A stretch of 63,769 nt of DNA from Candidatus Omnitrophota bacterium (GCA_030637405.1 DAOWGP010000040.1:1-63769), one strand, 5' to 3'; shown: positions 5,886-50,068, numbered from the stretch's first letter. Numbers and translations are program-made. Notes: generated by a model not told the origin, from the letters alone.

Positions 5886-6754
5886 GAGTGCTCTTTCTTT
5901 AATAGGTAATACATGGTAATAGCCGTATAAACCGTTGCGTCAATGAACACGGTGACCAAAATACTGACGATAATGACCAGCACGCGCGCTTCGGGAAATG
6001 TGGTCTGCGCGATACCGCCAATATTACCGCGCAATAACAAGACCGGCAAATAAAACACTGTCGGCAAAAACACAAGAACAGCGACAAACCAGAACGATCC
6101 CCAAAGATGCTTGAAATTTAATCCGATCGCCGGAAATATTTTTTTCTTCTCAATGGCAATAAGCGGAAAGACAAACGCGAAAACCGTGGTTACAAAAACC
6201 CCGATCAAAAGATTGAAATGCGGGGCCCCTTTAATAACAACCGTTTTTATAATAAAGAAAATACCTTCTGTTGAACTGATCGCTAAAGCACGAACGATCA
6301 TCAAACCATAAACCTTATGGAGACCGTAAAACATGCAAAATGATATCAGGGCCCCGACAAAGATATGCACATACTGCGAAAAAACATCCCGGCAAGCGGA
6401 TAAAAATCTGACTTTCCGGCCATCATTGATCGCGGCAATAATCGCTATGGCTACCGCAATAAAAAAGCTGCTAACAAAAATATACAAGGGGATCTGGGCA
6501 TATTGGAATAATTTGGGAAGAATAATGAAATTACTCGGATAGTGTATAAATTCTTCACCCCATAGCGTCCGGATAATGGGATTGAAAAAATCTGATAGCG
6601 GGAATCTTGGAACAAAATACAGTATTTCCAAGACAAAAACCTGGACAAAAGCTATGGTTACGAAAGGGACTAGTATGATCGGATGGGTTGTGAATGTATT
6701 GATCGCGCCTCGTAAGAGACCAACAAGCTCCTTAGGAACTTTTTTCCGTGGCAT
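5882..6754 (-). CDS. Polytopic inner-membrane protein, unknown function
   Basis: 290 aa with at least 6 hydrophobic helices. It is the first gene after the sigma70-like promoter at 6812-6840. Confidence 0.5.
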   Translation of the reverse strand: MPRKKVPKELVGLLRGAINTFTTHPIILVPFVTIAFVQVFVLEILYFVPRFPLSDFFNPIIRTLWGEEFIHYPSNFIILPKLFQYAQIPLYIFVSSFFIAVAIAIIAAINDGRKVRFLSACRDVFSQYVHIFVGALISFCMFYGLHKVYGLMIVRALAISSTEGIFFIIKTVVIKGAPHFNLLIGVFVTTVFAFVFPLIAIEKKKIFPAIGLNFKHLWGSFWFVAVLVFLPTVFYLPVLLLRGNIGGIAQTTFPEARVLVIIVSILVTVFIDATVYTAITMYYLLKKEHS

Positions 6755-7023: not shown

Positions 7024-7302
7024 TTACTTTTTTCGACTTGAAAAATACGTCATCGCGGCTAAACCGCCGCCGATAAGCAACATACTGGCCGGTTCCGGAT
7101 TAACTAACGTCGCAACTTCAGCTCCACCTAATGTAGCATCCGCTGCAGCTCCCCCTAAGAGAGCGATCCCGCCTCCAATACCAGTACTGCCGAAAAGGAA
7201 GCTCGCTAATGAGCTGACGCCGCCTGAACCACATCCATAGACAAAAGGAAGGGCTCCAGCTAGAACAACGAGTTTTAGGAATTTAGAAAAACCTTTTCCC
7301 AT
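7024..7302 (-). CDS. Small Gly-rich PEP-CTERM protein (92 aa) with lipobox-like N-terminal signal
   Basis: The N-terminus is KFLKLVVLAGALPFVYGC. The C-terminus, NPEPASMLLIGGGLAAMTYFSSRKK, has the PEP motif, a hydrophobic helix and a basic tail. RBS GAGAGGAG lies upstream. Confidence 0.85.
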   Translation of the reverse strand: MGKGFSKFLKLVVLAGALPFVYGCGSGGVSSLASFLFGSTGIGGGIALLGGAAADATLGGAEVATLVNPEPASMLLIGGGLAAMTYFSSRKK

Positions 7303-7306
7303 TTTA

Positions 7307-7618
7307 CTACTCCTCTCTTTCTTGATTCTTTACTTGCTTATTATAACGATTTGCTTTCGACTTAAAATACGTCATTACCGCCAAACCACTTCCCAACAGT
7401 AACATGCTGGCAGGCTCAGGCTGACTCAATGTCGCAAGTTCAGTTCCAACACCTAGGCCAGTATCTTTTACAGTGGTTAAAAGGCCGATACCAGTACTTC
7501 CACCGAAAAGGAACCCGAGCAACGCGCCAGTACCAGCGCTTGATCCGCATCCATAGATGAAAGGAAGCGCTCCAGCTAGCGTAATGAGCTTAAGGAATTT
7601 TGAATATTTTTTTTCCAT
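7307..7618 (-). CDS. Small Gly-rich PEP-CTERM protein (103 aa), paralog of 7024-7302
   Basis: The start is moved to the ATG at 7618 (MEKKYSKFLKLITLAGALPFIYGC), which is preceded by AAAGGAGG. The C-terminal part is QPEPASMLLLGSGLAVMTYFKSK plus a 17-aa charged tail. The track ORF start at 7672 would overlap the upstream gene. Confidence 0.85.
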   Translation of the reverse strand: MEKKYSKFLKLITLAGALPFIYGCGSSAGTGALLGFLFGGSTGIGLLTTVKDTGLGVGTELATLSQPEPASMLLLGSGLAVMTYFKSKANRYNKQVKNQEREE

Positions 7619-7640
7619 TTTAATCTGCCTCCTTTCTTGT

Positions 7641-8787: not shown

Positions 8788-9426
8788 TCAGGGGAGATAT
8801 TGATGCAGGTGGGGAACAATCAACCGGCCAAACTTCTTTATACGCTCGCTGGCCTCAGATTCATTCTCATGTTTGACTGTGGAAGAAATCCTTATAAGAG
8901 CGCTGCTGGCAGGACTCCCAAGAAAAGACTTCATGGCAATAAGCCCTTGTTGAATCCAGTAATTTGATGTGAAGGAATCGCCGACTTTGAACCAATAGAC
9001 AAAGATCTGCTCGGTCCTCCCCCTCTCTACCGTCAACCGGTTGACTTCGATTCTTTCATCTTCCGATACCGAAACAAAAGAATCATGAACATTGTTTAGG
9101 ATCGTGGCCCCTCCCCCGGTATAGCATATCTCCGGCGGGTGGGATACTTTCCGGTTGTTCTGGGAGTACACAACAAACAAGTAAACTTCTTCACCTTGTG
9201 TATTCGAATAACGCCGGACAAAAACATTATCCGTTTCAAGAAGGGCTTTATCATCCTTTGAAATCGGTATTTCTTCTGCCGCCCAACCCCCGATCTCCTT
9301 TGGGAAAAAATGAATATTGACACTATCTTCCTGACGGTAAACCTTGAAATAAACCCGCCATGACACAGTGCCGGCAAACACAAAAAGCACAAGAATGAAC
9401 CAATAGCTAAGATCCTTTAACTTCAT
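8788..9426 (-). CDS. EpsI-family exosortase-associated protein
   Basis: 212 aa with one N-terminal TM segment. Motifs include FPKEIGGW...E and VSHPPEICYTGGG, the latter analogous to the EpsI H.P..C..G.G motif. ATGA overlap with the exosortase gene. Confidence 0.7.
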   Translation of the reverse strand: MKLKDLSYWFILVLFVFAGTVSWRVYFKVYRQEDSVNIHFFPKEIGGWAAEEIPISKDDKALLETDNVFVRRYSNTQGEEVYLFVVYSQNNRKVSHPPEICYTGGGATILNNVHDSFVSVSEDERIEVNRLTVERGRTEQIFVYWFKVGDSFTSNYWIQQGLIAMKSFLGSPASSALIRISSTVKHENESEASERIKKFGRLIVPHLHQYLP

Positions 9427-10241
9427 TCCAAGATCCTCCCGGCAACGAACAGTAAAATAAAGGCAAGGGCAAAAACAAGAAAGCCTGAGGCGTCATGAAT
9501 AAACCCGACGGCATATTTAGGCCCCCAAATTTCAGCGATCGAAGAAAGGAAAATGATCCGCGCGACATTAGTTACGATAGCAATGGGAATAGTAATAATA
9601 AAAAGAAGATATTTTCTGACTATGGACGATTTCATCCAGTACGCAAAAATGCTTCCCAAAGCCATCAAAGAGATCAGTGACCTTAATCCACTGCAGACAT
9701 CATCAACGACGATTTGAGCATTGCGCATATGGATCAAGCTGCCTTCGCGCAAAGCCGGGATGCCGGCATTATTTAAAATATCCGTAGCAATTTTTGCCGC
9801 AAAAATCTTCATTTTGAAACTGATATTGGTAATGATCACTAACGGGACGGGAATCATAAAGACTAAAAACAGGACAGGAAAAAGGATTTTCTTGAAAACA
9901 GCAAAACCGTAAAAGAACAAGATCAACCCGACTAACACGATCAACATGGAAAATCCGGAAATAAAATAGACCCGCATCAGCGACGCGAAGATATGCATAA
10001 GCATGCCGGTGATGATCAGGAACATCCCCCATCCTGAACTGATCTTTTTGATCGAAGCGAGATCTTCCCTCTTCTGCCAGACCAGGAACACAACCACAAA
10101 GGGTATAAGAATGCCGTGGCTGTAATAGGAATCCCGCGCGAACCACCTATCCCACATCCAGATAAAAGTCGGAACATAGGTCAAAAGGAAGAGAATGGTT
10201 ATGGAGAACTGCTTAACGTAAGATTTGATAGAAATTTGCAT
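9423..10241 (-). CDS. Exosortase (EpsH/Xrt family), short 272-aa form
   Basis: Polytopic. It carries WDRWFARDSYYSHGILIPFVV, the catalytic-type motif VCSGLRSLISL, and the downstream VTNVARIIFL. Confidence 0.85.
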   Translation of the reverse strand: MQISIKSYVKQFSITILFLLTYVPTFIWMWDRWFARDSYYSHGILIPFVVVFLVWQKREDLASIKKISSGWGMFLIITGMLMHIFASLMRVYFISGFSMLIVLVGLILFFYGFAVFKKILFPVLFLVFMIPVPLVIITNISFKMKIFAAKIATDILNNAGIPALREGSLIHMRNAQIVVDDVCSGLRSLISLMALGSIFAYWMKSSIVRKYLLFIITIPIAIVTNVARIIFLSSIAEIWGPKYAVGFIHDASGFLVFALAFILLFVAGRILE

Positions 10242-10741
10242 TGAAATAGATTGTTTGAAATTAATGGAAATTATTTGTTCCGTTCGTTAGTGTTATTGTT
10301 TTTTGAATTATAGATCGCTTTGATAAAATTTGTTAATTTTAAGGATAAGTTCTCGGAAATTGCTTTCATAGAATCATATTTGTTTTAGAAGCTTTTTTCC
10401 GTTCATAGAGCAATTCCAACCAATGCGCGAAAGATTCACTTAAAGAAGCCCGAGAGGTATAATACTTGATCTTGTCTAAATAATGATACCTGCGATACCC
10501 CTCGGCTATATTGGATCCTACTGAATCTGTCGACTCAATAAATTGATCTCCCATAATCTTTTTATCTTGCCAGCTAAGCTCCTCGTATATTCCCCAAGCT
10601 ATTGATGACATTTTTCTTGCCAGCCCATAGACCTCTAGATCTTTTAATGGAATGTACTTATTCACCCGAAACACCTATTCGTCCGTCACAACCAATTTCA
10701 ATAAATTTCAATCAATTTCTACCAATTTCTATAAATTCCAA
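10241..10741. repeat. Four-helix-bundle gene cassette A bracketed by inverted arrays of GAAATT-type periodic repeats
   Basis: Left arm 10254-10272 is TTTGAAATTAATGGAAATT. The reverse complement of right arm 10694-10712 is ATTGAAATTTATTGAAATT, a 16/19 match. The right arm is a 5-unit AATTTC-N4-5 array (10691-10741). Confidence 0.6.
10366..10674 (-). CDS. Four-helix-bundle protein (23S rRNA intervening-sequence protein / Avd family)
   Basis: 102 aa. The signature (DQFIESTDSVGSNIAEGYRRY...Y..SRASLSE...WL) is typical of the TIGR02436/PF05635-type family as I recall it. Confidence 0.75.
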   Translation of the reverse strand: MFRVNKYIPLKDLEVYGLARKMSSIAWGIYEELSWQDKKIMGDQFIESTDSVGSNIAEGYRRYHYLDKIKYYTSRASLSESFAHWLELLYERKKASKTNMIL

Positions 10742-10784
10742 TCCCACACCCTCATCCTCGACTCACAACCCATACCCACCCAAA

Positions 10785-11933
10785 TCAATCCCTCGCCTTT
10801 TCCCACGTAATGTCCTGCCGCGCCGCAAAAAATCTTAAAAAACCGATCAGCGCGGAGAAATTCAATAAACAAAAAACATACGGGATATAACATACCTTTG
10901 AAACGGTCTTCAGAATACCATATTTTTGATGTCTTGCCAAGCCGCCAATCACCGCCATAATGTAGAACAGTTTCTGCAGGTCAAAAAGCATTTGATACAA
11001 TAGCTCCCCGGTCAGGCTCCAATTGATAAAAAAGAGCGCGACCATAAACAACGGGATCAATACACGCAAAAGCTTATGCGAGAATAACTGAAAAGCGATA
11101 GGGCTTTTCGCGGGATTGAACATCTCCCGAAAGACCCAAAAGATCTGATAATTCCCGAAAAGTGTCCGCGTCTTGCGCCGATGTTCCTCCCTCGAGCTGT
11201 CGGCAACCTCATCGTAGGCAATAGCTGAAGAGTCGAAAACCGCGCGATACCCACTTTGAATAATTTTAAATGGCACAAACATGTCATCAAGAACGATATC
11301 TTCCGGTATTTCCGTAAATAATTCCCTGCGGATCGCGTAGATCGCTCCGGTGGCCCCCAGCATCGAATGGACATGGCTCTCCGCGCGGCGAATGAACTTT
11401 TCATAATTCCAATAAAGGTTAATTCCCCGAGCAGTCGCTCCGTCTTTCTTGGAAAACATCAATTCGCCACTGACACACCCAACCTGAGAATCATTGAAAT
11501 TGCTGACCAGAACTTTAACCGCGTCCCTTTCAAAAATCTGCCGGGCATCGGTAAAGACAATGATCTCATTCTTGGCTTTCTTGACCAGATCATTGAGCGT
11601 TGCCATCTTTCCCCGTCGCTGAGCATCCTCGATCAAATGAACGCGGGGATCGATAAACTGCCGTATCATGTCATTGGTTTGGTCGCTCGAGCCGTCGGAC
11701 CCGATGAGGATCTCGATCTTTTCAGCCGGGTAATCTAAGGACAAGAGGTTCTTGATCTTGCTTTTAATGACATCTTCTTCGTTCCAAATGGAAAGGATGA
11801 CCGATACCGCCGGTTCACATTCCCCTTTTTCTATCGGGCGGCGCGGAATGTAACTGAGGCAGGCCACAACGACGGGATAACCGAAGTAACAGTAACAGAT
11901 AAGGAAAATGAGAGTCCAAAAAACAAAAGTCAT
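10785..11933 (-). CDS. Membrane-integrated family 2 glycosyltransferase (synthase-like topology)
   Basis: 382 aa. N-terminal TM, VSVILSIWNEE...GSDGSSDQT and TDARQ motifs, then C-terminal TM helices after EEHRRKTRTLFGNYQ. Confidence 0.75.
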   Translation of the reverse strand: MTFVFWTLIFLICYCYFGYPVVVACLSYIPRRPIEKGECEPAVSVILSIWNEEDVIKSKIKNLLSLDYPAEKIEILIGSDGSSDQTNDMIRQFIDPRVHLIEDAQRRGKMATLNDLVKKAKNEIIVFTDARQIFERDAVKVLVSNFNDSQVGCVSGELMFSKKDGATARGINLYWNYEKFIRRAESHVHSMLGATGAIYAIRRELFTEIPEDIVLDDMFVPFKIIQSGYRAVFDSSAIAYDEVADSSREEHRRKTRTLFGNYQIFWVFREMFNPAKSPIAFQLFSHKLLRVLIPLFMVALFFINWSLTGELLYQMLFDLQKLFYIMAVIGGLARHQKYGILKTVSKVCYIPYVFCLLNFSALIGFLRFFAARQDITWEKARD

Positions 11934-11970
11934 ATGTAATCTTATACTGGTTATGATACAAGATATAGTA

Positions 11971-12235
11971 GATTGAAATTGTTTGAAATTAGTGGAAATT
12001 CTTTGAAATTAATTGTGAGCATTTGAAAAAATTATCGTGACAGTGGTTTTTAAAACCATGCCATCCTCAAATAACATTTTTTCAGAGATCTCAACTAATC
12101 CCAAAAAATTTCTACCACTTTCTACTCATTTCAACAAATTTCAACCAATTACTACCAATCCCCATTCTCCCCCAAACATCTCGTCCCACAACTTACAACC
12201 CAACCAAATTTCTATCAATTTCCATCAATTTCAAC
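11971..12235. repeat. Gene-less element with the same GAAATT-type inverted repeat arrays (MITE-like derivative of cassette A)
   Basis: Left arm 11983-12010 is TTGAAATTAGTGGAAATTCTTTGAAATT. The reverse complement of 12207-12234 is TTGAAATTGATGGAAATTGATAGAAATT, a 23/28 match. There is an extra internal array at 12107-12150. No credible ORF lies between the arms. Confidence 0.55.
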
Positions 12236-12269
12236 TTCTTATATCGTGTGTCTTGCATCTTGTGTCTTT

Positions 12270-13046
12270 TTATATTTTCAACAATGTCTTGCGTATCCAA
12301 TCATACACCCCTTCGCCGAAAAATCTTTTAATAGCACTTTTGCTTTTACCAATCAGACGTTCATGAGCCGGAGTGTCGCCGGTAACAGCCTGTTTAAAAC
12401 GTTTAATCGGCCAGCTGGCTTTTACAGCCACGCGGCTTAAGCACTCTAAATTCAAAGCCCTCGGCCGGTCCGAAATGAACACGTATTTATAGCCGCAATC
12501 GTAAGCCATGCGAATCACTTTATTGTTGCAAAAACCCCTGGGCATTGAAAAAGCATCGACATTGATATTGAGATTACGCTCGAGATATCTTTTTGAAGCG
12601 CGCAATTCCTCTTCGACCTGCGAATCCAGAAGATTCGTGAGGATCTCGTGGCTGAATCCGTGAGAACCGATAACCATTCCTGCCTCATGCAGTGCCCGCA
12701 GCTCATCCCATCCCATATAACCGGGTTCACCGATGCGCTTAGCAATAATAAAGAAATGAGCGGGAAACCCGCATTTCTTCAAGACCGGAAGAGCCTGATC
12801 ATAATTATTCATCTCACCATCGTCAAAAGTCAATATGACCTGGCATGCGCCCGGAGCCGGCGCCGCCTCATTAAGAATATCAATTTTATATTGCTCTGCT
12901 TCCAGCCATTCCATTTGCTTCTGAAAGTTCACCGTCGCGACATCATAGAGATCCGCCCCCGCCTCCCTCTCTTTGGGAAGGGCCGTCCACTCAGAAACAA
13001 TACCGTGATACATAAGGACTAATGGTTGTAAAGATAGTTTGGACAT
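12270..13046 (-). CDS. Polysaccharide deacetylase (CE4 / NodB-type)
   Basis: 258 aa with the motifs ILTFDDGEMNNY and GSHGFSHE. Confidence 0.8.
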   Translation of the reverse strand: MSKLSLQPLVLMYHGIVSEWTALPKEREAGADLYDVATVNFQKQMEWLEAEQYKIDILNEAAPAPGACQVILTFDDGEMNNYDQALPVLKKCGFPAHFFIIAKRIGEPGYMGWDELRALHEAGMVIGSHGFSHEILTNLLDSQVEEELRASKRYLERNLNINVDAFSMPRGFCNNKVIRMAYDCGYKYVFISDRPRALNLECLSRVAVKASWPIKRFKQAVTGDTPAHERLIGKSKSAIKRFFGEGVYDWIRKTLLKI

Positions 13047-13052
13047 GGCTCC

Positions 13053-13550
13053 ATAAATGTCAAATGAAAAATGACAAATGCCAAATTAATGATAAATGAC
13101 AAATGTCAAATATTCAGGAATTTGCTTGTGATTTCTTAATGATACTGCTCAAAATCAGCAATATTTCATTACATTCCTTGATCGACCAGTCTAACTCGTT
13201 TTTAATCGATGTATTGTGGATCGGAACAATAGCTTTTAATAATTTTACCCAATGTCTGGATTCCCTTGCCTCCCGTCTCGATATCCCGACCTTATTAATA
13301 AAATCTTTCTTCGTTAATGCCCCATCTGCCTCTTCAAGATTAGCTCCTATTGATCCACTTGATCGGATCAATTGCCGGCCATATTCACTAACTGATATTC
13401 TTTCAGGCAGCTTTTCTATAAGCTTAACAGTTCTAACAGAAAACTCAAACACCCTGTCATATATATCAAATTTCTTTTTTCACTCATCGCTCAACCATTT
13501 ATTTATCATTTTTCATTTGGAATTCATTTGACATTTGTCATTTGTCATTA
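13053..13550. repeat. Four-helix-bundle gene cassette C bracketed by inverted arrays of CAAATG/TGTCATTTG periodic repeats
   Basis: Left array 13053-13112, right array 13501-13550. 13055-13068 (AAATGTCAAATGAA) is perfectly complementary to 13523-13536 (TTCATTTGACATTT). Confidence 0.6.
13114..13452 (-). CDS. Four-helix-bundle protein (23S-IVS/Avd family), N-terminally truncated relative to its paralog by a homopolymer frameshift
   Basis: 112 aa with a GTG start. Highly similar (the large majority of aligned residues identical by eye) to 15463-15837 (…LIRSSGSIGANLEEADGALTKKDFINKVGISRREARESRHW…). The upstream ATG at 13487 falls out of frame at the A6 run at 13475-13480; the paralog has A7. Confidence 0.7.
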   Translation of the reverse strand: MFEFSVRTVKLIEKLPERISVSEYGRQLIRSSGSIGANLEEADGALTKKDFINKVGISRREARESRHWVKLLKAIVPIHNTSIKNELDWSIKECNEILLILSSIIKKSQANS

Positions 13551-13566
13551 GCTTTCCTTCTTTGGT

Positions 13567-14196
13567 CTACTTCTCCACAACCGCCTTTTTCAGGCCCTTC
13601 ACTGTTGCCTTAAGCATATACAAGCCCTGTAGTTTCTTCCGCGCGGCATCATCGCCCGGGTCATTCTGAACTCTTTTCTCATATTCGCGGATACGCCCTT
13701 CGATGCGCTCAAGCTGCTGCCGGAACTGCTCCGGCGTCTTTTTGATCCCCTTAAAAGCATCGCCTTCAGACATGCGGTCTATGATATCTGCTTCCCGGAC
13801 TGTTTTTCTCATCGATGAATTCCAGCGGCGCTGGTTCTGGAGCAAGGCGCCCCGCTCTTGCGTTTTAATATTGTATTCCTCCGGGTCACTGAAGATTATC
13901 TCCGGTAGGACCTTCTCCTTGATCTGCTCAACGATCACAGGTTTCACCGGCAACCGCGCTGATAACGGCTTCCTTTTCTCCGGTATTTGGATCTTAAGCT
14001 GCCGATCAACCGAAATATTGATCGCCCGGAATGTGATAAAAAATACAAACACCGAGGCGATAATGGCATACAACGCATATCGATAATAATTATACTCCCT
14101 CACGTGCCTGGGAACTGACGCGCTTGCGCGCTTGCGCCGTTTTTTCGCCCTTGCGATCCTGGGCTCTTTTGCTCTTGTGCTCCTACGCTGTATCAT
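13567..14196 (-). CDS. Hypothetical bitopic protein (basic N-terminus, one TM, about 140-aa extracytoplasmic part)
   Basis: The start is moved to the ATG at 14196 (MIQRRSTRAKEPR…). It sits 1 nt after the upstream stop and is preceded by GGAGGG. TM segment: YALYAIIASVFVFFITF. Confidence 0.5.
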   Translation of the reverse strand: MIQRRSTRAKEPRIARAKKRRKRASASVPRHVREYNYYRYALYAIIASVFVFFITFRAINISVDRQLKIQIPEKRKPLSARLPVKPVIVEQIKEKVLPEIIFSDPEEYNIKTQERGALLQNQRRWNSSMRKTVREADIIDRMSEGDAFKGIKKTPEQFRQQLERIEGRIREYEKRVQNDPGDDAARKKLQGLYMLKATVKGLKKAVVEK

Positions 14197-14197
14197 G

Positions 14198-15325
14198 CTA
14201 TATTTCCCTCCACGAACTCGGATTCTTCGTGTAGCCGGAAACTCCGCCTCCCACCAAACCCTCAAATCCCGGAGGAACGACCCCTCTTTTTCTCATGTCC
14301 GCGTAATTAAAAGTTTTTGTCGACCAGACTTCACGGATAATGATCCCTTCATTGGCAACCACGCTGCCATTGGTCACCGACGTGTCGTGCATCTCATCAA
14401 AATAGGCGCTCCCATGAGTATAAATCATGCCATTGTGAATGCTGGGCAAGGCCGCGGTCTCAAAGTAATCCGACCAGGCAATAATATTCAACTGTGAATC
14501 TTTTTGCGCCAGGCCCGCCTGATTGTGCGTGACCGTGCCCGTCGCAATAACGGTCAGGCTTTGTCCTTTTTCAAGCGCCCCGGTAAACTGAATGATCGCA
14601 TTCCCCTCGCCTTCCCGCCGGCCTTCAATGTAAATGATCTTCTTGCCTTCAAGCGATTCATCCGGCGTGATCGTATAAGTGTCATTGCCCTGGATATAAA
14701 CCACTTCATCTTCCGGATAGCTGGCAATAAGATTACGGTAAAAAGCAATAAAGTCGGAGAACTCATCAGGAGTCCCATTACCGTCAGCATCGGGATAAGT
14801 TATCGAGACAAGCGCATCATTCACACCCTCCTGGACATCCTCAAAAAAGGTAAGCGGATACGTGGCCGTATTGATCACGTTCCCTCCGAGGCGTAATTTA
14901 TCATTGATCATCAGCGACGACTTACGCCCCTCGATGAACACGCTTCCCTTCGTTGACATAGTGCTCTCAAAGATCGTCGATAGAGCGGGATATTTGATCT
15001 GTATGCTCCGCCGGCTCCCCCCGGTGGTACCGGTCGACGTCACAAGCCGGTATTTCCGGTTGGAATCATCCTTGAGAATCTCGATCATCCCGTTTTCTTC
15101 ATTAATCATTTTTGATCCTGTTTCGTTAAGGATTTCCGGGTCCGCAAGGAATTGATTGATTCCTGCTTCGGCAAGCCAGAAAGCCGCCGTTGTATCCTGA
15201 TGCCGGCGCGCGTCATTGAGTTCGGTAAAATTGAAAAGCGCCACGCTTGACGACAATGTTACCAGAACGAACAAAGCCATGTAAACGGCAATTAAAACGG
15301 CCCCTTTATTGTTTGATAGGTTCAT
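14198..15325 (-). CDS. GspK/PilX-like minor pseudopilin (no Glu5-type prepilin motif)
   Basis: 375 aa. The N-terminus, NNKGAVLIAVYMALFVLVTLSS…AAFWLAEAGINQ, resembles the PilX_N/GspK N-terminal region. Confidence 0.55.
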   Translation of the reverse strand: MNLSNNKGAVLIAVYMALFVLVTLSSSVALFNFTELNDARRHQDTTAAFWLAEAGINQFLADPEILNETGSKMINEENGMIEILKDDSNRKYRLVTSTGTTGGSRRSIQIKYPALSTIFESTMSTKGSVFIEGRKSSLMINDKLRLGGNVINTATYPLTFFEDVQEGVNDALVSITYPDADGNGTPDEFSDFIAFYRNLIASYPEDEVVYIQGNDTYTITPDESLEGKKIIYIEGRREGEGNAIIQFTGALEKGQSLTVIATGTVTHNQAGLAQKDSQLNIIAWSDYFETAALPSIHNGMIYTHGSAYFDEMHDTSVTNGSVVANEGIIIREVWSTKTFNYADMRKRGVVPPGFEGLVGGGVSGYTKNPSSWREI

Positions 15326-15347
15326 AACGTGTCTTTAGCTAGTTAAC

Positions 15348-15909
15348 AAAAATGCCAAATGAAAAATATCAAATGATACATCGCGCTTCGCGCAAGTACT
15401 CCTCGCAATAATCCCGAGCAAAGCGAGGGGAAAATAAATGTCAAATTCCAAAATCTAAATAATTAAGAACCCTTCTGGGTTTTCTTAATGATACTGCTCA
15501 AAATCAATAATATTTCATGGCACTCATTAATCAACCAATCTAATTCCTTTTTATCGGATATATTCTGAATCGGAACAACAGCTTTCAATAACTTTAACCA
15601 ATGCCGAGATTCCCTTGCCTCTCTCCTGGATATTCCAACCTTATTAATAAAATCCTTCTTCGTTAATGCCCCATCTGCTGCCTCAAGATTAGATCCCATT
15701 GAACCACTTGACCTAATTAATTGCCGACTATATTCTCTGGCTGATATACTTTTAGGCAATTTCTCTAGAAATTTAACTGTTCTTGCGGAAAACTTAAATA
15801 TCCGATCATATATATCAAACTTCTTTTTTTCGATCATTTTTCAACTATCCAATTTGTCATTTATCATTTGGTTTTCATTTGACATTTGTCATTTGCTCAT
15901 TTGTCATTA
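15348..15909. repeat. Four-helix-bundle gene cassette D bracketed by inverted CAAATG-type periodic repeat arrays (with a nested small palindrome)
   Basis: Left array 15348-15379 plus 15431-15458; right array 15851-15909. 15354-15378 matches the reverse complement of 15861-15883 in two blocks (12 and 9 nt). There is a nested CCTCGC…GCGAGG hairpin at about 15400-15430. Confidence 0.55.
15463..15837 (-). CDS. Four-helix-bundle protein (23S-IVS/Avd family)
   Basis: 124 aa. Full-length paralog of 13114-13452. Confidence 0.8.
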   Translation of the reverse strand: MIEKKKFDIYDRIFKFSARTVKFLEKLPKSISAREYSRQLIRSSGSMGSNLEAADGALTKKDFINKVGISRREARESRHWLKLLKAVVPIQNISDKKELDWLINECHEILLILSSIIKKTQKGS

Positions 15910-15921
15910 TTAACAATGTTT

Positions 15922-16419
15922 TTAGCGGAAGAACGGCGTTTTTGAACGTAAAGCAACCCTTTCCTTTAATGCCGCTTTTGCCATCTGCCCATCCGACATC
16001 CGCTTGCTTGCTGTAATATCGATAATCACGACATCTTTCAAATATTGAAAAGAAAGATCGGAAATGTATTGTGCCATGATCCGTTTTTTAAAACGGTTCC
16101 GCCGGATGATCCTGCCGGCATCGCGCCCTTTATTCCTCCAAATATACGAAACAGGGCCGGTCAACGGGATATAAAAATGGACGGCGCTCCCGTCGGGGCC
16201 CTCAATGACCCGCACATTTTCGGCCGCCCGCAGTTCATTGACCATCCCTAAAAGAGCCCTACGCGCTTCCCGTCTTGCCGCGACCGAATCGTTATAATGA
16301 ACCCAGGCCTTGTTCCCGACGATATAGGTTGAATAGATCCCCGCGAAGACAACCGTAGAAATGAGAGCCGTAACCAGCGCCTCGACAAGAGTAAATGCTT
16401 TTTTATTATGTGTCCTCAT
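15922..16419 (-). CDS. GspJ/PilW-like minor pseudopilin with prepilin-type N-terminal methylation motif
   Basis: The start is moved to the ATG at 16419 (ATGA overlap with the upstream stop). The N-terminus reads MRTHNKKAFTLVEALVTALISTVVFAG, followed by ARREARRALLGMVNELRAA. Confidence 0.65.
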   Translation of the reverse strand: MRTHNKKAFTLVEALVTALISTVVFAGIYSTYIVGNKAWVHYNDSVAARREARRALLGMVNELRAAENVRVIEGPDGSAVHFYIPLTGPVSYIWRNKGRDAGRIIRRNRFKKRIMAQYISDLSFQYLKDVVIIDITASKRMSDGQMAKAALKERVALRSKTPFFR

Positions 16420-16802
16420 TTTGCGACCTTTGTTATGAACGTGACGCCATGGCTTCTCAATTTCCGCGTCCAATTCACCGTTACCTGCATATCGAGTAAA
16501 TTGCTGCTTGGTTCCGAAAAGATAATATCGATGGTTTCACCGGGAAGCGTGTTCAATCCTTGGTCCACGGCCCACTCTTCCCAATTCATGACCAGAATAC
16601 TGCCGATCGAGTCGCTTCTTTGAGCTTCTTCCAGAACGTACTCGGCATGCGATGTCGCGACGGTCATATCCCATGCCAGCTGCGATGAGATCATCGAAGT
16701 CACATACAATAAAAGCACCCCGCCGATCGCGACAGCCAAAATAAACACGGCAATAAGCAGCTCAACAAAAGTAAATCCTTTATTATTGCGTTTAAGAGAC
16801 AT
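16416..16802 (-). CDS. GspI/PilV-like minor pseudopilin with prepilin-type N-terminal cleavage/methylation motif
   Basis: 128 aa. The N-terminus reads KRNNKGFTFVELLIAVFILAVAIGGVLL. Confidence 0.75.
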   Translation of the reverse strand: MSLKRNNKGFTFVELLIAVFILAVAIGGVLLLYVTSMISSQLAWDMTVATSHAEYVLEEAQRSDSIGSILVMNWEEWAVDQGLNTLPGETIDIIFSEPSSNLLDMQVTVNWTRKLRSHGVTFITKVAK

Positions 16803-16876
16803 AAAACTTCCTGATTGGGTTATAAAAACTCGTTTTTATTATATAGGCGAGACCCATGAAAGAAAAGCCATAAATT

Positions 16877-17060
16877 GTCATTCTGATGCCCGAAGGGCCG
16901 AAGAATCTCAACAGTGGCCCCCCCGGCAGGGGAGCTCTGGCCTTCGGAAGCCTTGAGATCCTTCGTACTTGTTTTCCAAAATCATTTAGATGAAACCAGC
17001 ACGTAATGTTTCCCTCTAAATTAAGTATTAAGGAAAAACATGCGCTTCGCTCAGGACGAC
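16877..17060. repeat. MITE/REP-like palindromic element (GTCATTCTG family)
   Basis: It starts GTCATTCTGATGCCCGAAGGGCCGAAGAATCTC and ends GCGCTTCGCTCAGGACGAC, an imperfect terminal inverted repeat. Its internal segment CTTCGTACTTGTTTTCC…TAGATGAAAC is shared with 59684-59840. Confidence 0.6.
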
Positions 17061-17065
17061 ATTAC

Positions 17066-17110
17066 AAAAAAATGAGCAGCAGCCTATCACTTTGAACAAG
17101 GCTGCTGCTC
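17066..17110 (-). terminator. Rho-independent terminator after the 1042-aa gene
   Basis: Minus strand GAGCAGCAGCC-15 nt-GGCTGCTGCTC forms a perfect 11-bp stem. It is followed by ATTTTTTT. Confidence 0.75.
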
Positions 17111-17142
17111 TTCCGCGCTTCATAATCCCAAAAGCCGGCCTT

Positions 17143-22618: not shown

Positions 22619-24026
22619 CAGCGCCGAAATCCCCGTAAAATGTTAGTAGTATTAAACATGCGTAATAAAAACAAACTCTCAGCGGTATTTGCGATTTAAG
22701 GACAACCAATAAATCCTTTTTCATATATTGGAAAACTTGGACCAAGATCAGGATGCATGTGTAACCTGCTATCTGTCCTATCATGCGCGTTGCCCCGTCA
22801 AACCAACTCAAATGAAAAACCATGGCCCGGGTCATATCAAAAATTTGCCTGCCCCATTGCGCCCGGAATATCAGCATACCAAACGTAATAAGCTGAAACA
22901 TAAAGAGCATTCTCAATCCGGCCCATAATCTTTGCCCGATAATACTCTTGGGTTTGATCCAATCTCTGCAGTTATCCCTTATAACCTTACAGGCCACCAA
23001 AAGAACCCCGTGATACAGGCCCCAAATAATAAAGATCCAGCTAGCCCCATGCCATAGCCCCATAATTGCCATCGTAATAAGGATCGTAATGGAAATCCTG
23101 AGATTAGCATTGACCTTCCGTATAGAAAAGAAAATCGGCATATAAACATAATCACGCACCCAAGTGCTCAGGCTGATATGCCACCGGTTCCAGAAATCTT
23201 GAATATTCGTCACAAAATAGGGCAAGTCAAAATTGAGCATGAGATCAAATCCCATCATCTTAGCCAATCCTCTAGCCATACAAGTATAACCTTCAAAGTC
23301 GCAGAAGATCTGGAATGTAAAGGCATAAGCGGCCAACAAAACTTCCAGGCCGTTATACGGCGGACTAGCCGCAAAAACAGGCGCAACAATGTTGGCTAAG
23401 TTATCGGCGATAAAAACCTTAAGAAACAGTCCCCAGAAAAAAAGATGGCTGCCCTCGAAAAAACGGTCGAACGTTATTGCGCGCTTAGTAAGCACCTGCG
23501 GCAGGAGGTTTTTTGCCCGCTCAATGGGGCCGGCGACCAATTGCGGGAAAAATGATACAAACAGGGCGAAACTAACAAAATCACGGGTAGGCTTCATTCC
23601 TTTTCTGTAAATATCGATCGTATAACTCAGTGACTGAAGCGTAAAAAAGGAAATCCCCAAGGGAAGAATAATGTAAAATGTAGTGAAATGAAATGATAAA
23701 CCGATATATTGGAACAAGCCGTTAAGATTTTCTATAAAAAATTTGAAATATTTAAAGAATCCCAAAACAAATAAATTTCCCGCGATACTGATAAACACGA
23801 TCCTTTTTCTTACTTTCACATCCTCGGACTGATAGATTTTTAACCCGCAAAAATAATTCAGAACAGTTGAAAAAAGGATCAAAGAGGAAAACCGCCAATC
23901 CCAAAACGCGTAGAATATATAACTGGCCGCGAGAAGCATTCTGTTTTGCCACTTTAGCTGCAGGGCAAAATAAAGCCCATAGACAATGACAAAGAATACT
24001 AGAAAGTGAAGTGAATTAAATACCAT
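22593..24026 (-). CDS. MBOAT-family membrane-bound O-acyltransferase (DltB/AlgI-like)
   Basis: 477 aa, polytopic. It carries FWNRWHISLSTWVRDYVYMPI with the conserved His region. Confidence 0.85.
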   Translation of the reverse strand: MVFNSLHFLVFFVIVYGLYFALQLKWQNRMLLAASYIFYAFWDWRFSSLILFSTVLNYFCGLKIYQSEDVKVRKRIVFISIAGNLFVLGFFKYFKFFIENLNGLFQYIGLSFHFTTFYIILPLGISFFTLQSLSYTIDIYRKGMKPTRDFVSFALFVSFFPQLVAGPIERAKNLLPQVLTKRAITFDRFFEGSHLFFWGLFLKVFIADNLANIVAPVFAASPPYNGLEVLLAAYAFTFQIFCDFEGYTCMARGLAKMMGFDLMLNFDLPYFVTNIQDFWNRWHISLSTWVRDYVYMPIFFSIRKVNANLRISITILITMAIMGLWHGASWIFIIWGLYHGVLLVACKVIRDNCRDWIKPKSIIGQRLWAGLRMLFMFQLITFGMLIFRAQWGRQIFDMTRAMVFHLSWFDGATRMIGQIAGYTCILILVQVFQYMKKDLLVVLKSQIPLRVCFYYACLILLTFYGDFGADEFIYFQF

Positions 24027-26216: not shown

Positions 26217-27896
26217 TCAGTTTGACTGACTTGGTTCTGTAAAACGAATTTCCAATAAATTAACAGAATGCGCCGGAATATCATAGGTGAACTTTTTCTT
26301 AACGCCTGATAGATCATACTTTTTTATATCAACAGTTCCAGGCGACCCGTCATTTTGCGCTTCAAGATCAGGGCCATTTAGGATCCAGACATACCCGGTA
26401 TCCTGCGGATTTACGCCTTCCAGTGATATATTGACCTTAAAATTCTGACTGGCATGTTTATTGGTTAAAACAATAGCAATCTTCCTTTCCTGAGAGAACG
26501 TACTGGCATAAGCCTCAACATACGGAACTTCCCCGGTGTAAGAATCCGCTCTCCAATCCCGCTTTTTGTCATAGTTTGGTGAGCCTTTCATTTTACTTTC
26601 GATCAGGATATCGCCAAAATGCCGGGCAAAAAGTTTCAAGGCCAAGGCTTTCGGGCGAATGGTCTTTCCGTCCCAGCGGCTCCCCCCCCAACCAGCCTCC
26701 TTATCCCAGCCGCGGATCAAACCAAACATGACTTCCTGAAAACAGAACTGATGCGCCATCAAAATACCATGCCGGGCATAATGTCCCAGCGTATCGGCAT
26801 AAAATATTCCGTTGGCCAGCGACCACATCATCCCCTTATATTCAAATTCCAGATCTGAAGGTACCGCGTCCCAAGATCCATCCCATTCCAGAAAAGCGAT
26901 CTTGATCTTTCCTTTTCTATGCGGGGCATATTCATCGATCATCCGCGTGACCCTGTCAACGATTTCTCCAACAGCCATTGAGTTGGCCATGATCTCCTTC
27001 GGCAGGGGATGGAACCTCCCTTTATATTTATGATACTGGTCGACGTGATTGGGATACCAATGGAAAGACAAAAAATCAAAATAATCCGCGGCCTCCTTCA
27101 TAATAGCTTCATCAAATACGGAATATCTCGGCCCTCCCCAATTAGCTCCAATTTTAATAGTTGGATCAGCTTGTTTCATTGCCTGTGAATAAGCTTTGAT
27201 GATTTTGGCATATTCTTGACCAGGCATGTACGCCGTATCCCAATCCCCGTAGACTTCATTGCCCAACTCCCAGTAATCAACCCGCATCCCTTCACTGCTC
27301 TGGTTCATGAATCTTACCCAATCAGCAGCTTCTTGAGGTGTTCCGGATTCGATATTGACCATGATGATAATATTGACGCCGACAATTTTAGAAAACTTTA
27401 TGACATTTTTAATTTCTGACAGAGGCGCGTTATCAAAACGGTCCGAAAAGTCAAACGTCCCTAATTTCCAGCGATAGCCGGACGATCCCCCGCCGGGAAA
27501 ACGAAAACTTGTGATCCCGGTATCTTCCGCGAATTTCGCGACATCCATTTCAAATTCTGTTTTTGTATCTAAATTAGCTCCGTAGATCATCGGATTGATC
27601 TCTCTGATCTTCCGCTTTGGATGAACAGCTAAACTTAAAATTCCCGTAAATTTCTCGTCTTCTTTATCATCCCGCCCCTTTCTGAAAGAAAGCTTATCTA
27701 TCGCTTTCCACTTGATTTGAGAGACCATGTTGCGCGCGTAACGGATATATTCTTCCTTCGGCCTTTTCAAATTAATACGGTCCCGCAAGACATAGGCAGC
27801 GACACCGGCCCCTAACATCAGACCAATACCGCATAAAATGACGCTAATGATGACAAATTTAATAAATTTCTTCTTTTTAGGCTTTGTATTTTTCAT
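26217..27896 (-). CDS. Membrane-anchored clan GH-A glycoside hydrolase (GH51/GH79-like)
   Basis: 559 aa. N-terminal TM, then FRFPGGGSSGYRWKLG and YWELGNEVYGDW (GNE acid/base-type motif). Confidence 0.55.
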   Translation of the reverse strand: MKNTKPKKKKFIKFVIISVILCGIGLMLGAGVAAYVLRDRINLKRPKEEYIRYARNMVSQIKWKAIDKLSFRKGRDDKEDEKFTGILSLAVHPKRKIREINPMIYGANLDTKTEFEMDVAKFAEDTGITSFRFPGGGSSGYRWKLGTFDFSDRFDNAPLSEIKNVIKFSKIVGVNIIIMVNIESGTPQEAADWVRFMNQSSEGMRVDYWELGNEVYGDWDTAYMPGQEYAKIIKAYSQAMKQADPTIKIGANWGGPRYSVFDEAIMKEAADYFDFLSFHWYPNHVDQYHKYKGRFHPLPKEIMANSMAVGEIVDRVTRMIDEYAPHRKGKIKIAFLEWDGSWDAVPSDLEFEYKGMMWSLANGIFYADTLGHYARHGILMAHQFCFQEVMFGLIRGWDKEAGWGGSRWDGKTIRPKALALKLFARHFGDILIESKMKGSPNYDKKRDWRADSYTGEVPYVEAYASTFSQERKIAIVLTNKHASQNFKVNISLEGVNPQDTGYVWILNGPDLEAQNDGSPGTVDIKKYDLSGVKKKFTYDIPAHSVNLLEIRFTEPSQSN

Positions 27897-29076
27897 AAAC
27901 TTTTAATAATGTCCTTCCGATAATGTTCCAATCATAACGTTCCTCAACCAATTGACATCCGGCTAAACCAACCCGGTGAAGGGTCGACGGATCGTCGAGC
28001 AATGTTAAGACCTTTCGGGCGAAATCTTCAGGTTTATCAGCTATGATAATATCATGGCCATCCCGGCAGGCAATACCCTCGGCTCCGATAGATGTTGAGA
28101 CAACAACCCTTTGCATGGCCATGGCTTCCAGTATTTTTAATCTCGTCCCGCCGCCGATCCTCAGCGGCACAACAAAGATCCTAGATCTCTCGACATAAGC
28201 GCGCACATCATCGACCCTTCCGGTTAAGATAATACGATCATCAGATCCCGCGTATTCACTAAGACGGGCTGACGGGCTCTTTCCGATGACATAGAATTTG
28301 ACCTTCGGATTTTCCTTCCAGACCAACGGCAAAATATCTTTGCAGAAATAAAGCGCCGCATCATCATTAGGCAGCCAATCCATCGATCCGGTAAACACCA
28401 CCGCCTCTTCTTCTGACCCCTGACTCCTGACCCCTGATCCCTGAAAATACCCCGTATCCACTCCATTTGAAATCACATGCCCAAGAGCGCTATCAGCCCC
28501 TAAATCAACCAGAAGGTTTTTGTCCTCATCCGAAACCGCTAAATAGGCGGAAAATTTCTTCACGTGATCAGCTTCGAACTTTTTCATCTTGCGCGCCTGC
28601 CCTTTAAAAATAAATCTTTTAAGCGCTGATTTTTCCACATCCGCGCAGCGTTCAAGAATCTTGTATTCCACATTATGCTCGTCAAGGACGCACGGCAAGC
28701 CGTCAAAACAGCCGCGGTAATGCGCCATATGCAAATGGTCGATATGCGCGGCATCAAACTGGTTCGTCTGATGTAATTCCGATAATATGCCCTCCATCAC
28801 GTCCGAATAGTATTTTGACACGGATACCGGTTCGGAACCCGTCAGCACGCGTATTATTTTATCCGCGAATGACAGTTCTTTGATCGGAACCAAAATCACC
28901 TCGATGCCGTCACTTTTCAGTGCCGAAGAGAATTCTTGGTCTTTTTCATCAAATGAAAAGCAGACGAAATGGATCCTTGCGCAAGAAGCTAGTTGCTTGA
29001 GAATATTCAGCGTCCTAATCTTACCGCCGGTATCCGCGGGAATTGGAAGCCTCGGCGCGATAAATAAAATATGCAT
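27877..29076 (-). CDS. GT4-family (GT-B) glycosyltransferase
   Basis: 399 aa. MHILFIAPRLPIPADTGGKIRTLN…; the C-terminal GGGTRLKILEAMAMQRVVVST is an E-x7-E-type region. Confidence 0.8.
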   Translation of the reverse strand: MHILFIAPRLPIPADTGGKIRTLNILKQLASCARIHFVCFSFDEKDQEFSSALKSDGIEVILVPIKELSFADKIIRVLTGSEPVSVSKYYSDVMEGILSELHQTNQFDAAHIDHLHMAHYRGCFDGLPCVLDEHNVEYKILERCADVEKSALKRFIFKGQARKMKKFEADHVKKFSAYLAVSDEDKNLLVDLGADSALGHVISNGVDTGYFQGSGVRSQGSEEEAVVFTGSMDWLPNDDAALYFCKDILPLVWKENPKVKFYVIGKSPSARLSEYAGSDDRIILTGRVDDVRAYVERSRIFVVPLRIGGGTRLKILEAMAMQRVVVSTSIGAEGIACRDGHDIIIADKPEDFARKVLTLLDDPSTLHRVGLAGCQLVEERYDWNIIGRTLLKVYEKYKA

Positions 29077-29092
29077 TTCTTTTCTATCCCCT

Positions 29093-31447: not shown

Positions 31448-31450
31448 TGT

Positions 31451-32593
31451 TTAACTCTTCTCTTTGCATAAGCCGCTAAACAGCCGCTCATATTTCTGGA
31501 CCATCTCTTCAATACTGAAGCGCTCGATAACATTTTCCCTCGCTTTAGAACCAAAGCGCTCGCATTCTCGCGGGTTTTTTAAAAAATACAATAGTTTATC
31601 GGCTAAATCCTCCGGATCCGAAGGATTGACCAGCAATCCGGTTATACCGTCGGAAATGACTTCCGGATTGCCCCCGACATGAGTTGCCACAATGGGTTTC
31701 CCGGCGGACATATATTCGAGAAGCGTATTCGACAGCCCTTCGCTTAATGAAGGCAATACGCAAATATCAACGCTCTTGAGAATTTCGGGAACATCTCTTC
31801 TTAGACCTAAGAATTGAATATTGTTTTCCAACCCCAATTTGTTCGCTTGATCTTTCAACATCTCTTTTAATTGCCTCTCTTTCATTCCCATTCCGCCGAT
31901 CATCAGAAGACAAACTTCCGGGAATTTCCCAACAATGCGCTTGATGGCTTCAATAAGATACTTATGCCCTTTAATAGAACGCAAATTCCCGACACATGCG
32001 ATCACCTTTGAACTTCTTGATATCCCCAACTCATCTCTCATGGCGCTTGGGCTGCTTTGGCTATTAAAGCGCTTGAGATTAATTCCGTTATGAATGACCA
32101 CGATTTTCTCGGAGCCGACCCTTTCTGACTTTAAAACAGCTTCCCGGACGTCGTTTGAGACAACAACGATTTTGGAAACCAATTTATCCAAAATCTTGTA
32201 CGAAAACACATGCGCCCAGTTTTTCCAAAAACCGGCATCCCGCCTATTGGATACAATCACCGGAACTCTTGCGTATTTTCCAAAAACGGAACCCCAAATA
32301 TCAGAACCGAAATGATAGGTCATAAGAACGTCAATTTTCTCATCTTTCAGAAATCTCGCGAACTTTAATCCTTGTCTTAATCCCCGGAAATCGTAAATAC
32401 GTTTAATATGCAGATGAATAATCTTGATCCCGAAAGTTTCCAATTGCTTGAAAAAGCGCCGATAGCCCGAAAAACAGGCGATATAGATTTTATATTCATT
32501 TTTATCTATATTTTTTAGAAGCTCAACAATCTGCCTCTCCGCCCCACCATTTATCGAGTAAAACACATCGACTAATATTAAAACTTTTCTCAT
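31451..32593 (-). CDS. GT4-family glycosyltransferase
   Basis: 380 aa with EGLSNTLLEYMSAGKPIVATHVGGNPEVI. Confidence 0.8.
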   Translation of the reverse strand: MRKVLILVDVFYSINGGAERQIVELLKNIDKNEYKIYIACFSGYRRFFKQLETFGIKIIHLHIKRIYDFRGLRQGLKFARFLKDEKIDVLMTYHFGSDIWGSVFGKYARVPVIVSNRRDAGFWKNWAHVFSYKILDKLVSKIVVVSNDVREAVLKSERVGSEKIVVIHNGINLKRFNSQSSPSAMRDELGISRSSKVIACVGNLRSIKGHKYLIEAIKRIVGKFPEVCLLMIGGMGMKERQLKEMLKDQANKLGLENNIQFLGLRRDVPEILKSVDICVLPSLSEGLSNTLLEYMSAGKPIVATHVGGNPEVISDGITGLLVNPSDPEDLADKLLYFLKNPRECERFGSKARENVIERFSIEEMVQKYERLFSGLCKEKS

Positions 32594-33609: not shown

Positions 33610-33625
33610 ATCATTAACTCTATTT

Positions 33626-37503: not shown

Positions 37504-37505
37504 AG

Positions 37506-50039: not shown

Positions 50040-50068
50040 GCCTGTCCTAATGAAGTAATGTCCGTCGA

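Follow-up and report, generated by a model that had tools for sequence, protein, structure and literature searches.

The DNA analysed here is a 63,769-nucleotide (nt) stretch from a member of Candidatus Omnitrophota (DAOWGP010000040.1), called the window below, and all window coordinates count over its full length. It holds a polysaccharide and PEP-CTERM-exosortase cluster, with 51 of its 57 genes on the - strand and with glycosyltransferases, Wzy, a flippase, deacetylases, exosortase EpsH/EpsI and pilin-like genes among its contents. Three intergenic spacers of this cluster contain a short open reading frame (ORF) for a four-helix-bundle protein, set between two arrays of short tandem repeats that are inverted relative to each other. 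We refer to these units as cassettes A, C and D, and to two ORF-less array sites in the window as B and E. Relatives collected for comparison are numbered L### (loci) and P#### (proteins).

The three ORFs (A, 10366-10674; C, 13114-13452; D, 15463-15837) lie on the - strand, co-oriented with the cluster, and are the only PF05635/TIGR02436 genes in the window. They score 48.6, 57.8 and 60.5 bits against PF05635 (curated cut-off 33.8) and 42.6, 75.1 and 78.1 bits against TIGR02436 (cut-off 24). By profile comparison, their clades probably share the fold of solved four-helix-bundle structures, with matches to 2RLD (2.9e-25 and 3.8e-7) and 2GSC (1.5e-3), entries that contain five chains apiece. The cassettes and ORF-less sites are made up as follows.

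10242-10784, - strand: cassette A, the whole spacer from the GT2 glycosyltransferase gene (10785-11933) to the exosortase EpsH gene (9423-10241)
10366-10674, - strand: A-type four-helix-bundle ORF, 102 amino acids (aa), shortened by a frameshift (PF05635 1.1e-12; homologues have 125-130 aa)
10274-10384, - strand: out-of-frame rest of ORF A, with the last helix YDSMKAISENLSLKLTNFIKAIYNSKNN (tblastn E=1e-7 to P0122 residues 98-125; identical in four other assemblies)
10688-10742, - strand: upstream arm of A, about five 10-nt units (T/A)GAAATTNNN (Tandem Repeats Finder period 10, 4.9 copies)
10218-10278, - strand: downstream arm of A, AATTTC units, the last of them overlapping the start of the exosortase gene
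13047-13566, - strand: cassette C, the spacer from a 209-aa gene to a polysaccharide deacetylase gene
13114-13487, - strand: D-type four-helix-bundle gene C, whose ancestral ATG is at 13487-13485 and whose open frame starts at GTG 13452
13497-13550, - strand: upstream arm of C, heptamers AATGACA
13053-13112, - strand: downstream arm of C, units TCATTTG, stopping 6 nt before the deacetylase ATG
15326-15921, - strand: cassette D, the spacer from a pilin-like gene (15922-16473) to a 375-aa gene
15463-15837, - strand: intact D-type four-helix-bundle gene, 124 aa (PF05635 2.2e-16; TIGR02436 5e-22; PDB 2RLD 2.9e-25 with the clade profile)
15852-15908, - strand: upstream arm of D, about eight heptamers AATGACA (Tandem Repeats Finder period 7, 8.4 copies)
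15348-15462, - strand: downstream arm of D, interrupted by a GC-rich insert (about 15378-15430) with GCTTTGC and GCGAAGC mini-hairpins
11934-12269, - strand: element B, an ORF-less GAAATT-type hairpin (12207-12232 and 12107-12159 against 11973-12015) inside outer ACACAAG/CTTGT arms
61251-61424, - strand: element E, an ORF-less CAAATG-type hairpin

Tandem Repeats Finder and motif clustering, run over the window, place periodic arrays only at the flanks of A (10231-10267 / 10694-10742), C (13055-13111 / 13497-13549) and D (15348-15376 / 15852-15908), at B (11973-12232) and E (61273-61398), and in two short intragenic arrays. Six other window spacers of at least 200 nt have none, which removes a doubt raised in a first-pass annotation of this DNA, that such repeats might fill most intergenic regions. 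That annotation had placed the three ORFs correctly and recognised their co-orientation. It had described the flanking arrays as inverted with a period of 10-12 nt; the inversion holds and the period does not, the unit being 10 nt of GAAATT type in A and B and 7 nt in C, D and E (CAAATGA in C and D), with occasional 11-nt units. Its finer claims, a 16/19 match between the arms of A and perfect complementarity of 13055-13068 to 13523-13536, are reproduced. Over their length the inverted arms measure 39 nt with 77% complementarity in A, 50 nt with 82% plus 25 nt with 96% in C, and 21 nt with 90% in D. Closing stems, which the annotation had made a test of its reading, appear in the RNA structures of minimum free energy predicted for A, C, D, B and E: each of the five is closed arm to arm, and B and E are predicted to fold as long hairpins (z = -2.65 and -3.25).

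C and D share 81.5% DNA identity. Compared with D, gene C has lost one A from the run at 13475-13480, which cuts the ancestral ATG off from the body of the gene. The frameshifts in A and C are identical in four to five independent assemblies of the same organism from other samples. No ORF remnants are detectable in B or E. One of the other-sample assemblies, L005, differs by five single bases, all in the upstream GAAATT array of A, and by one more in B, which suggests population variation or assembly ambiguity within the arrays.

The absence from the window of a reverse transcriptase, a transposase or a template/variable repeat pair, remarked on in the first-pass annotation, is confirmed by the approximately 50 genes with Pfam assignments and by a self-comparison of the window that returned only the C/D pair, a 190-nt leader pair and one small pair of paralogues. 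The A-type and D proteins give no match to PF22296 (bAvd) even at E<=10, there is no match to PADLOC defence-system families, and Rfam returns nothing for the cassettes at gathering or E<=1 level.

Recurrence and polymorphism of the cassettes

The architecture seen in the window is general. Among 156 non-redundant related loci with full flanks, 64-65% of four-helix-bundle genes have inverted flanks (upstream/downstream complementarity z>4). The corresponding figure for the 271 control genes taken from these loci is 3.7% (Mann-Whitney p=7e-39), and the controls rule out a chance low-complexity origin of the arms. The downstream unit is the reverse complement of the upstream unit across units that themselves differ (GAAATT, GAAATA, GATACT, GTAATT, GATATT, TATTGGT, AATGACA, AATGTCC, TAATGTA, CTTCAAA, TGATGTGC and others), and the type of unit follows the protein clade. 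Arrays have a period of 10/11 or 7/8 nt in the A clade and of 7 nt in 87 of 115 D-clade arrays. In the A-clade arrays of L017-L095 we observe periods of 7, 8, 10 and 11 nt, with 9 or 12 nt in none of 108. GC-rich mini-hairpins with GCGAAGC or GCTTTGC cores stand between repeat units in the window (15378-15430) and in L018, L025, L026, L045, L054, L059 and L179.

The host operons have little in common. They include type II secretion system (T2SS), glycosyltransferase, gas-vesicle, RND efflux, cas, DISARM and restriction-modification operons, and the first four D-type loci already lay in unrelated settings (one between two T2SS F genes, one following them, one within a glycosyltransferase operon and one within a gas-vesicle operon), each with AATGACAAATG... 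upstream and TTTGTCATTTG... downstream. Both neighbours are co-oriented with the cassette gene at 108 of 135 loci (80%), compared with 65% of gene triples (p=1e-4). Purifying selection on the protein is strong: the median ratio of nonsynonymous to synonymous substitution rates (dN/dS) is 0.095 over 36 pairs. Homologues of D come mainly from Omnitrophota; A-type proteins occur in Omnitrophota, Planctomycetota, Patescibacteria and Bacteroidota with 70-80% identity between phyla, and their distribution suggests that cassettes spread horizontally between phyla. No phage or plasmid carrier of the A clade was found. Conserved rRNA motifs are absent from all of 189 related loci; it is therefore through protein family and architecture that the cassettes are linked to rRNA intervening sequences.

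Related operons differ in which sites are filled. In L177, whose glycosyltransferase is 71% identical to that of the window, none of the four elements A, B, C and D is present and the genes abut or overlap, with overlapping genes at site C and a 15-nt spacer at site D. In L176 site A is empty, and site B is an arms-only nested hairpin whose outer arms are of CACAAGAG and whose inner arms are of CAAATGA. In L179 site B is filled by a full A-type cassette, site A is empty, and site C holds another four-helix-bundle gene, with ACCCAG/CTGGGT arms; site A is thus empty or overlapping in all three relatives. A reciprocal pattern occurs in a T2SS operon, where L009 has a cassette between two F genes that are 9 nt apart in L010, and the cassette of L010 follows the second F gene, a place that in L009 holds an arms-only hairpin. 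At the points of insertion, adjoining genes have their final or initial few codons clipped or replaced. The first-pass annotation had named as the chief threat to its reading that orthologous loci might always carry the genes at the same sites; L176, L177, L179 and the L009/L010 pair settle that point in favour of presence/absence polymorphism. Given this polymorphism and the arms-only forms in related operons, B and E are best read as cassettes that lost their ORF. Separately, L177 carries at 6166-6290 a tiny (GACACAT)3/(GTGTGTC)4 hairpin in the overlap of the glycosyltransferase and exosortase genes, where it codes for the tail of one product and for the N-terminus of the second.

Recent movement is another matter. 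The exact protein P0126 occurs on at least 24 contigs, always in the same context, and the three identical copies in Nostoc flagelliforme sit in homologous plasmid modules. Since such copies share one context and C and D are only 81.5% identical, recent transposition is not demonstrated. Among five to eight assemblies of the window organism there are no orientation or copy-number variants.

Cyanobacterial plasmids, STRR repeats and arrays inside genes

Finished plasmids of cultured cyanobacteria (Nostoc, Dolichospermum and Planktothrix) present the arrangement in its most regular form, with four-helix-bundle genes between perfect inverted heptamer arrays (4x7 nt).

Nostoc punctiforme pNPUN02: AATTCGC x4 upstream, GCGAATT x4 downstream
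N. flagelliforme: TTCAAAA upstream, TTTTGAA downstream
Nostoc C052: TTCGTAA upstream, TTACGAA downstream
N. punctiforme pNPUN01: GTCGGAG upstream, CTCCGAC downstream
Planktothrix: nested arrays upstream and downstream

Protein identity tracks the unit here as well: pairs that are 91%, 86% and 81% identical share a unit, and a 78% pair differs at one of seven positions. The arrays also cluster around the gene. Eleven of the 15 heptamer arrays of Dolichospermum pAfl69 lie within 4.5 kb of it (p=1.5e-7), four of six in Planktothrix p1 are at the cassette, with the remaining two in the same DISARM operon, and the sole heptamer array of p057_F adjoins the gene.

Some arrays lie within coding sequence. 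In pAfl69 (L202/L203), seven in-frame arrays of the cassette unit AATTACG, all in one orientation and translated as (ITNYELR)n, lie within 27263-33647, in the helicase-related, hypothetical and DNA methyltransferase genes that flank the four-helix-bundle gene. Both large ORFs there end in arrays of the opposite orientation that carry TAA in every frame. The second of the two intragenic arrays of the window is a small counterpart of the in-frame arrays of pAfl69.

14119-14182, - strand: remnants of CACAAGAG-type arrays in the N-terminal coding part of the 209-aa gene
28413-28444, - strand: in-frame heptamer array, GGGTCAG x4.6 on the sense strand, read QGSGVRSQGSE, in an inter-domain loop of a GT4 glycosyltransferase (27877-29076)

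Pairing is not a way in which solo in-frame arrays could act. They point to local seeding or spreading of the unit by a process at the DNA level. The idea that arrays serve as three-frame translational stops was dropped, as they show nothing in this respect beyond base composition and the cyanobacterial units follow no consistent rule.

Further members of the family lie in cas operons, between cas2 and cas1 and between csx2 and cas1. In plasmids of Nostoc TCL26-01 and Anabaena cylindrica (L190 and L191) the gene is between cas2 and cas1 on the opposite strand, with AGTAAAA arrays direct on both sides and an inverted array further downstream.

The heptamer arrays resemble the sequences termed STRR (short tandemly repeated repetitive). 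The unit AATGACC of a D-clade subgroup, equivalent to TGACCAA, is the complement of the classical STRR unit, which we take to be TTGGTCA, and the AATGACA unit of C, D and E is one base from AATGACC. Exact-sequence look-up of the STRR2-like D-clade loci returned no cyanobacterial names. STRR sequences have been described as hairpin-forming intergenic heptamer repeats of filamentous cyanobacteria whose function was still not known, with the suggestion that the hairpins stabilise transcripts or couple translation (PMC2670836). They are also reported inside the RNase P RNA gene (Vioque 1997).

Three other kinds of repeat occur in the window. Other operon spacers (window 16803-17142 and 59679-59924; spacers of L178) are taken up by a separate class of palindromic element, which has a GC-rich centre between the ends GTCATTCTGA...TCAGAATGAC. 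A 190-nt non-coding direct repeat, 89.5% identical between 37506-37694 and 50069-50254 and with no Rfam match, spans the start and about 160 nt upstream of a 2-hydroxyacid dehydrogenase gene (36439-37533) and a TPR gene (48759-50096), both on the - strand, and may be a shared leader or promoter. The direct repeat 7221-7324 / 7537-7639 (79% identical) coincides with two small adjoining paralogous genes.

Proposed origin and propagation of the cassettes

We propose, with belief and doubt about evenly balanced, that A, C and D belong to a widespread class of mobile-like PF05635 cassettes that carry clade-specific inverted arrays, are stem-looped in the transcript and are propagated via the repeat unit. 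Such cassettes lodge in sense orientation in the spacers of long operons, at times clipping the ends of neighbouring genes, and would be expressed by read-through transcription. They are gained, lost, moved between sites and spread between phyla, and decay in place to arms-only hairpins, with B and E as putative remnants of this kind. In the transcript a long stem most likely forms between the two arrays, with the ORF looped out, as in the ORF-bearing intervening sequences (IVS) of 23S rRNA; this stem would make the insertion tolerable and could offer an RNase III-type substrate. Propagation would act on the repeat unit at the DNA level, where a pentamer-forming protein most likely recognises its own unit and host enzymes would supply the catalysis. 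Of this picture, the architecture and how general it is, gain and loss of cassettes, the match of unit to clade, the gathering of arrays around the genes, selection on the protein and the predicted stems are demonstrated, while read-through transcription, cutting by RNase III, recognition of the unit and any means of movement are inferred. The finding is an IVS-like element in mRNA spacers, with tandem arrays for arms, and there is a substantial chance that it represents a new type of mobile element.

The first-pass annotation had spoken of IVS-like selfish cassettes, and a discrete PF05635 ORF, predicted to be looped out by inverted ends, agrees with that description. Its label "non-autonomous" is doubtful because dN/dS is about 0.1 and the protein clade tracks the repeat unit; the protein could act as the specificity factor of its element. 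Generality across phyla, derivatives that lack the ORF, and the identity of the arrays with repeats of STRR type all lie beyond what that annotation saw. We tentatively entertain a bolder version as possible: PF05635 proteins would be the sequence-specific factor of a transposase-less class of mobile cassettes, each clade reading its own 7-11-nt unit, with host enzymes writing, homogenising and spreading the arrays around the gene and into hairpin loops of transcribed DNA. One mechanism might then lie behind STRR sequences, ORF-bearing intervening sequences in rRNA and in RNase P RNA, and the stray four-helix-bundle genes in cas, restriction-modification, DISARM and polysaccharide operons.

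Several results weigh against the proposal that A, C and D are mobile-like cassettes propagated through their unit. As regards mobility, filled and empty sites could be compared only at about 70-78% identity, where no target-site duplication is definable; no near-identical copies at unrelated loci occur among those examined; and no catalytic domain, transposase or reverse transcriptase was found near the cassettes, so that no movement mechanism is evidenced. As regards pairing in the transcript, G:U-compatible and A.C mismatches number 156 and 133 (96 vs 76; 60 vs 57), which is not a significant difference. A sense-strand pairing advantage of about 4 kcal/mol in RNAduplex is matched by shuffled sequences and is therefore compositional. 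What many loci conserve is no more than a 5-nt core, set between variable spacers, and the resulting helices are poor. Mirrored unit order between the arms was individually significant on shuffling in none of 44 cassettes, with a small overall excess. The arms share a unit, not an exact mirror image, and the sequence signals do not separate RNA-level pairing from DNA-level symmetry. As regards the architecture itself, about one third of loci have no significant arms, some cassettes (L190, L191 and L201) run antisense to the adjoining genes or carry arrays that are direct and not inverted, the solo in-frame arrays have no pairing partner, and A and C, two of the window's three genes, have frameshifts.

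The main rival, which we regard as rather unlikely, assigns the arms to the target: STRR-like hairpins would pre-exist independently, and the gene would be a passenger inserted or retained in the apical loop, by analogy with the intervening sequences in the loops of 23S helices 25 and 45. ORF-less hairpins at many sites (B and E; L177 3558-3738; L176; L009; Planktothrix 23376-23669) fit this picture, as do nested arms, with an inner type within an outer one (B, L176 and L193), and the (GACACAT)3/(GTGTGTC)4 hairpin kept by the "empty" A site of L177. STRR hairpins with no ORF have likewise been described between genes (PMC2670836) and, reportedly, in the RNase P RNA gene. What a pre-existing target does not lead one to expect is a unit that tracks the protein clade down to 1-nt differences, or arrays that lie almost only at or near the gene on three whole plasmids. 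Moreover, an arms-only form where a relative has the full cassette fits loss of the ORF better than an unoccupied target.

That the cassette is a domesticated RNA module of the operon also appears unlikely. The arrays would then be host-beneficial processing or stabilising hairpins that tune the expression of segments, with the protein as an RNA-binding helper and no special mobility. The enrichment of sense orientation, the strong purifying selection and arms that abut the ribosome-binding sites and start codons of downstream genes speak for such a role, and so do a position kept by the various Algoriphagus species, another kept in several Bacteroidota between RND-pump and TolC-like genes, and the published suggestion that STRR hairpins stabilise transcripts or couple translation (PMC2670836). 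It is harder to square with host operons that are functionally unrelated, a close orthologous operon (L177) that works without any cassette, near-identical proteins across phyla, frameshifts in two of three window copies and solo arrays inside coding regions.

We consider it improbable that the arrays are a DNA-level switch, driving inversion or acting as slippage contingency loci that toggle surface-polysaccharide or defence neighbours, with the gene incidental. Copy-number change of 7-, 8-, 10- and 11-nt units does shift the frame, and periods of 9 and 12 nt are absent; in-frame arrays lie within the defence genes of pAfl69, Nostoc and Anabaena carry an antisense cassette between cas2 and cas1, and single-nucleotide differences separate the arrays of different samples (L005). 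However, the assemblies of the window organism show no orientation or copy-number variants, most arrays are intergenic, where a frame shift has no effect, and the constant presence and conservation of the protein would be left unexplained. Finally, we give almost no credence to an orphan avd remnant of a diversity-generating retroelement, to chance low-complexity sequence or to an assembly artefact: the family does include Avd, the 117-aa gene of L179 matches bAvd weakly and the sequences are A/T-rich, but there is no reverse transcriptase or template/variable repeat pair, the window proteins do not match PF22296, the control genes exclude chance, and the arrays recur in independent assemblies and in finished genomes of cultured strains.

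If it is true that the protein reads its own unit, as our preferred reading of the cassettes as mobile-like elements supposes, this would amount to a new protein-to-repeat code and a new mobility mechanism. The question is approachable in cultured carriers, namely Nostoc punctiforme, Dolichospermum flos-aquae CCAP 1403/13F and Planktothrix agardhii. The arrays also help explain why metagenome assemblies break at such loci, most homologues being found on contigs of 1-2 kb.

Comparison with known systems

Measured against transposons and miniature inverted-repeat transposable elements, the cassettes have terminal inverted repeats, in the form of inverted arrays, and have no transposase and no multiple near-identical copies. 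In Tn7 and Mu a single binding site is repeated several times in direct orientation within each end, and the two ends are inverted relative to each other; Drosophila foldback elements are comparable. The cassettes are alike in that their arrays are direct within an end and inverted between ends and that the unit co-varies with the element's protein; they differ in lacking a transposase, in units of only 7-11 nt and in offering no evidence of target-site duplication. Correia/NEMIS elements of Neisseria are co-transcribed miniature inverted-repeat elements that fold into RNase III substrates. Together with REP/BIME and ERIC sequences they are small, lie in operon spacers and form mRNA hairpins, and B and E resemble them. 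These families, however, have unique terminal inverted repeats, target-site duplications and known mobilising transposases, contain no ORF, and have arms that are not tandem arrays.

Avd is the nucleic-acid-binding accessory protein of diversity-generating retroelements. It is a homologous four-helix bundle, and solved relatives crystallise with five chains per entry; the window differs in having no reverse transcriptase, no template/variable repeat pair and no bAvd match. Four-helix-bundle genes in cas operons, for example between cmr3 and cmr2, have been read as pointing to a possible CRISPR-linked function (PMC3936711). They are members of the same family lodged in an unrelated operon, and flanking repeats were not described in that study. 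Annotations of a "four helix bundle protein" are very common inside otherwise coherent operons (cas, restriction-modification, DISARM, polysaccharide, T2SS and gas vesicle) and can be read as insertions instead of parts of the system. In the literature covered, which is thin on subscription journals, we found no description of repeat-array arms on four-helix-bundle genes or of a link to STRR sequences; an earlier description is possible.

STRR sequences share with C, D and E their tandem 7-nt units, their intergenic position in operons and their capacity to form hairpins. They differ from A and B, whose 10-nt period sets these apart from heptamer STRR, and the window, which matches the environmental assembly GCA_023136835.1 with its nearest homologues named as Omnitrophota, appears to be part of a metagenome-assembled Omnitrophota genome, not of a heterocystous cyanobacterium. 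Moreover, STRR were described as repeats without an associated gene, whereas the arrays here flank four-helix-bundle genes.

A close parallel exists with the ORF-bearing 23S rRNA intervening sequences of Leptospira and Coxiella. The PF05635 family is common to both systems, and in both the inverted ends form a transcript stem around the ORF, as predicted here for the cassettes. The intervening sequences are regarded as selfish and horizontally acquired, and their ORF can decay in place, as it has in A and C; an earlier report also places PF05635 genes in rRNA insertions of candidate-phyla-radiation bacteria. There are also differences. Intervening sequences lie in helix 25 or 45 of 23S rRNA, and the cassettes between protein-coding genes, in the mRNA spacers of operons. 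The arms of the cassettes are short tandem-repeat arrays, which may or may not set them apart from the ends of rRNA intervening sequences. For the Coxiella burnetii IVS with its S23p gene, excision by RNase III is proven and horizontal acquisition has been inferred with no mechanism given (PMC4990558); for the cassettes such excision would be a prediction. The Coxiella S23p ORF is reportedly in reductive evolution and apparently not made in vivo (PMC4990558), in contrast to the strong purifying selection on the cassette protein. Taken together, the comparisons suggest that ORF-bearing intervening sequences and STRR repeats are two faces of a single element, a four-helix-bundle gene whose arms are repeat arrays, present in many phyla.

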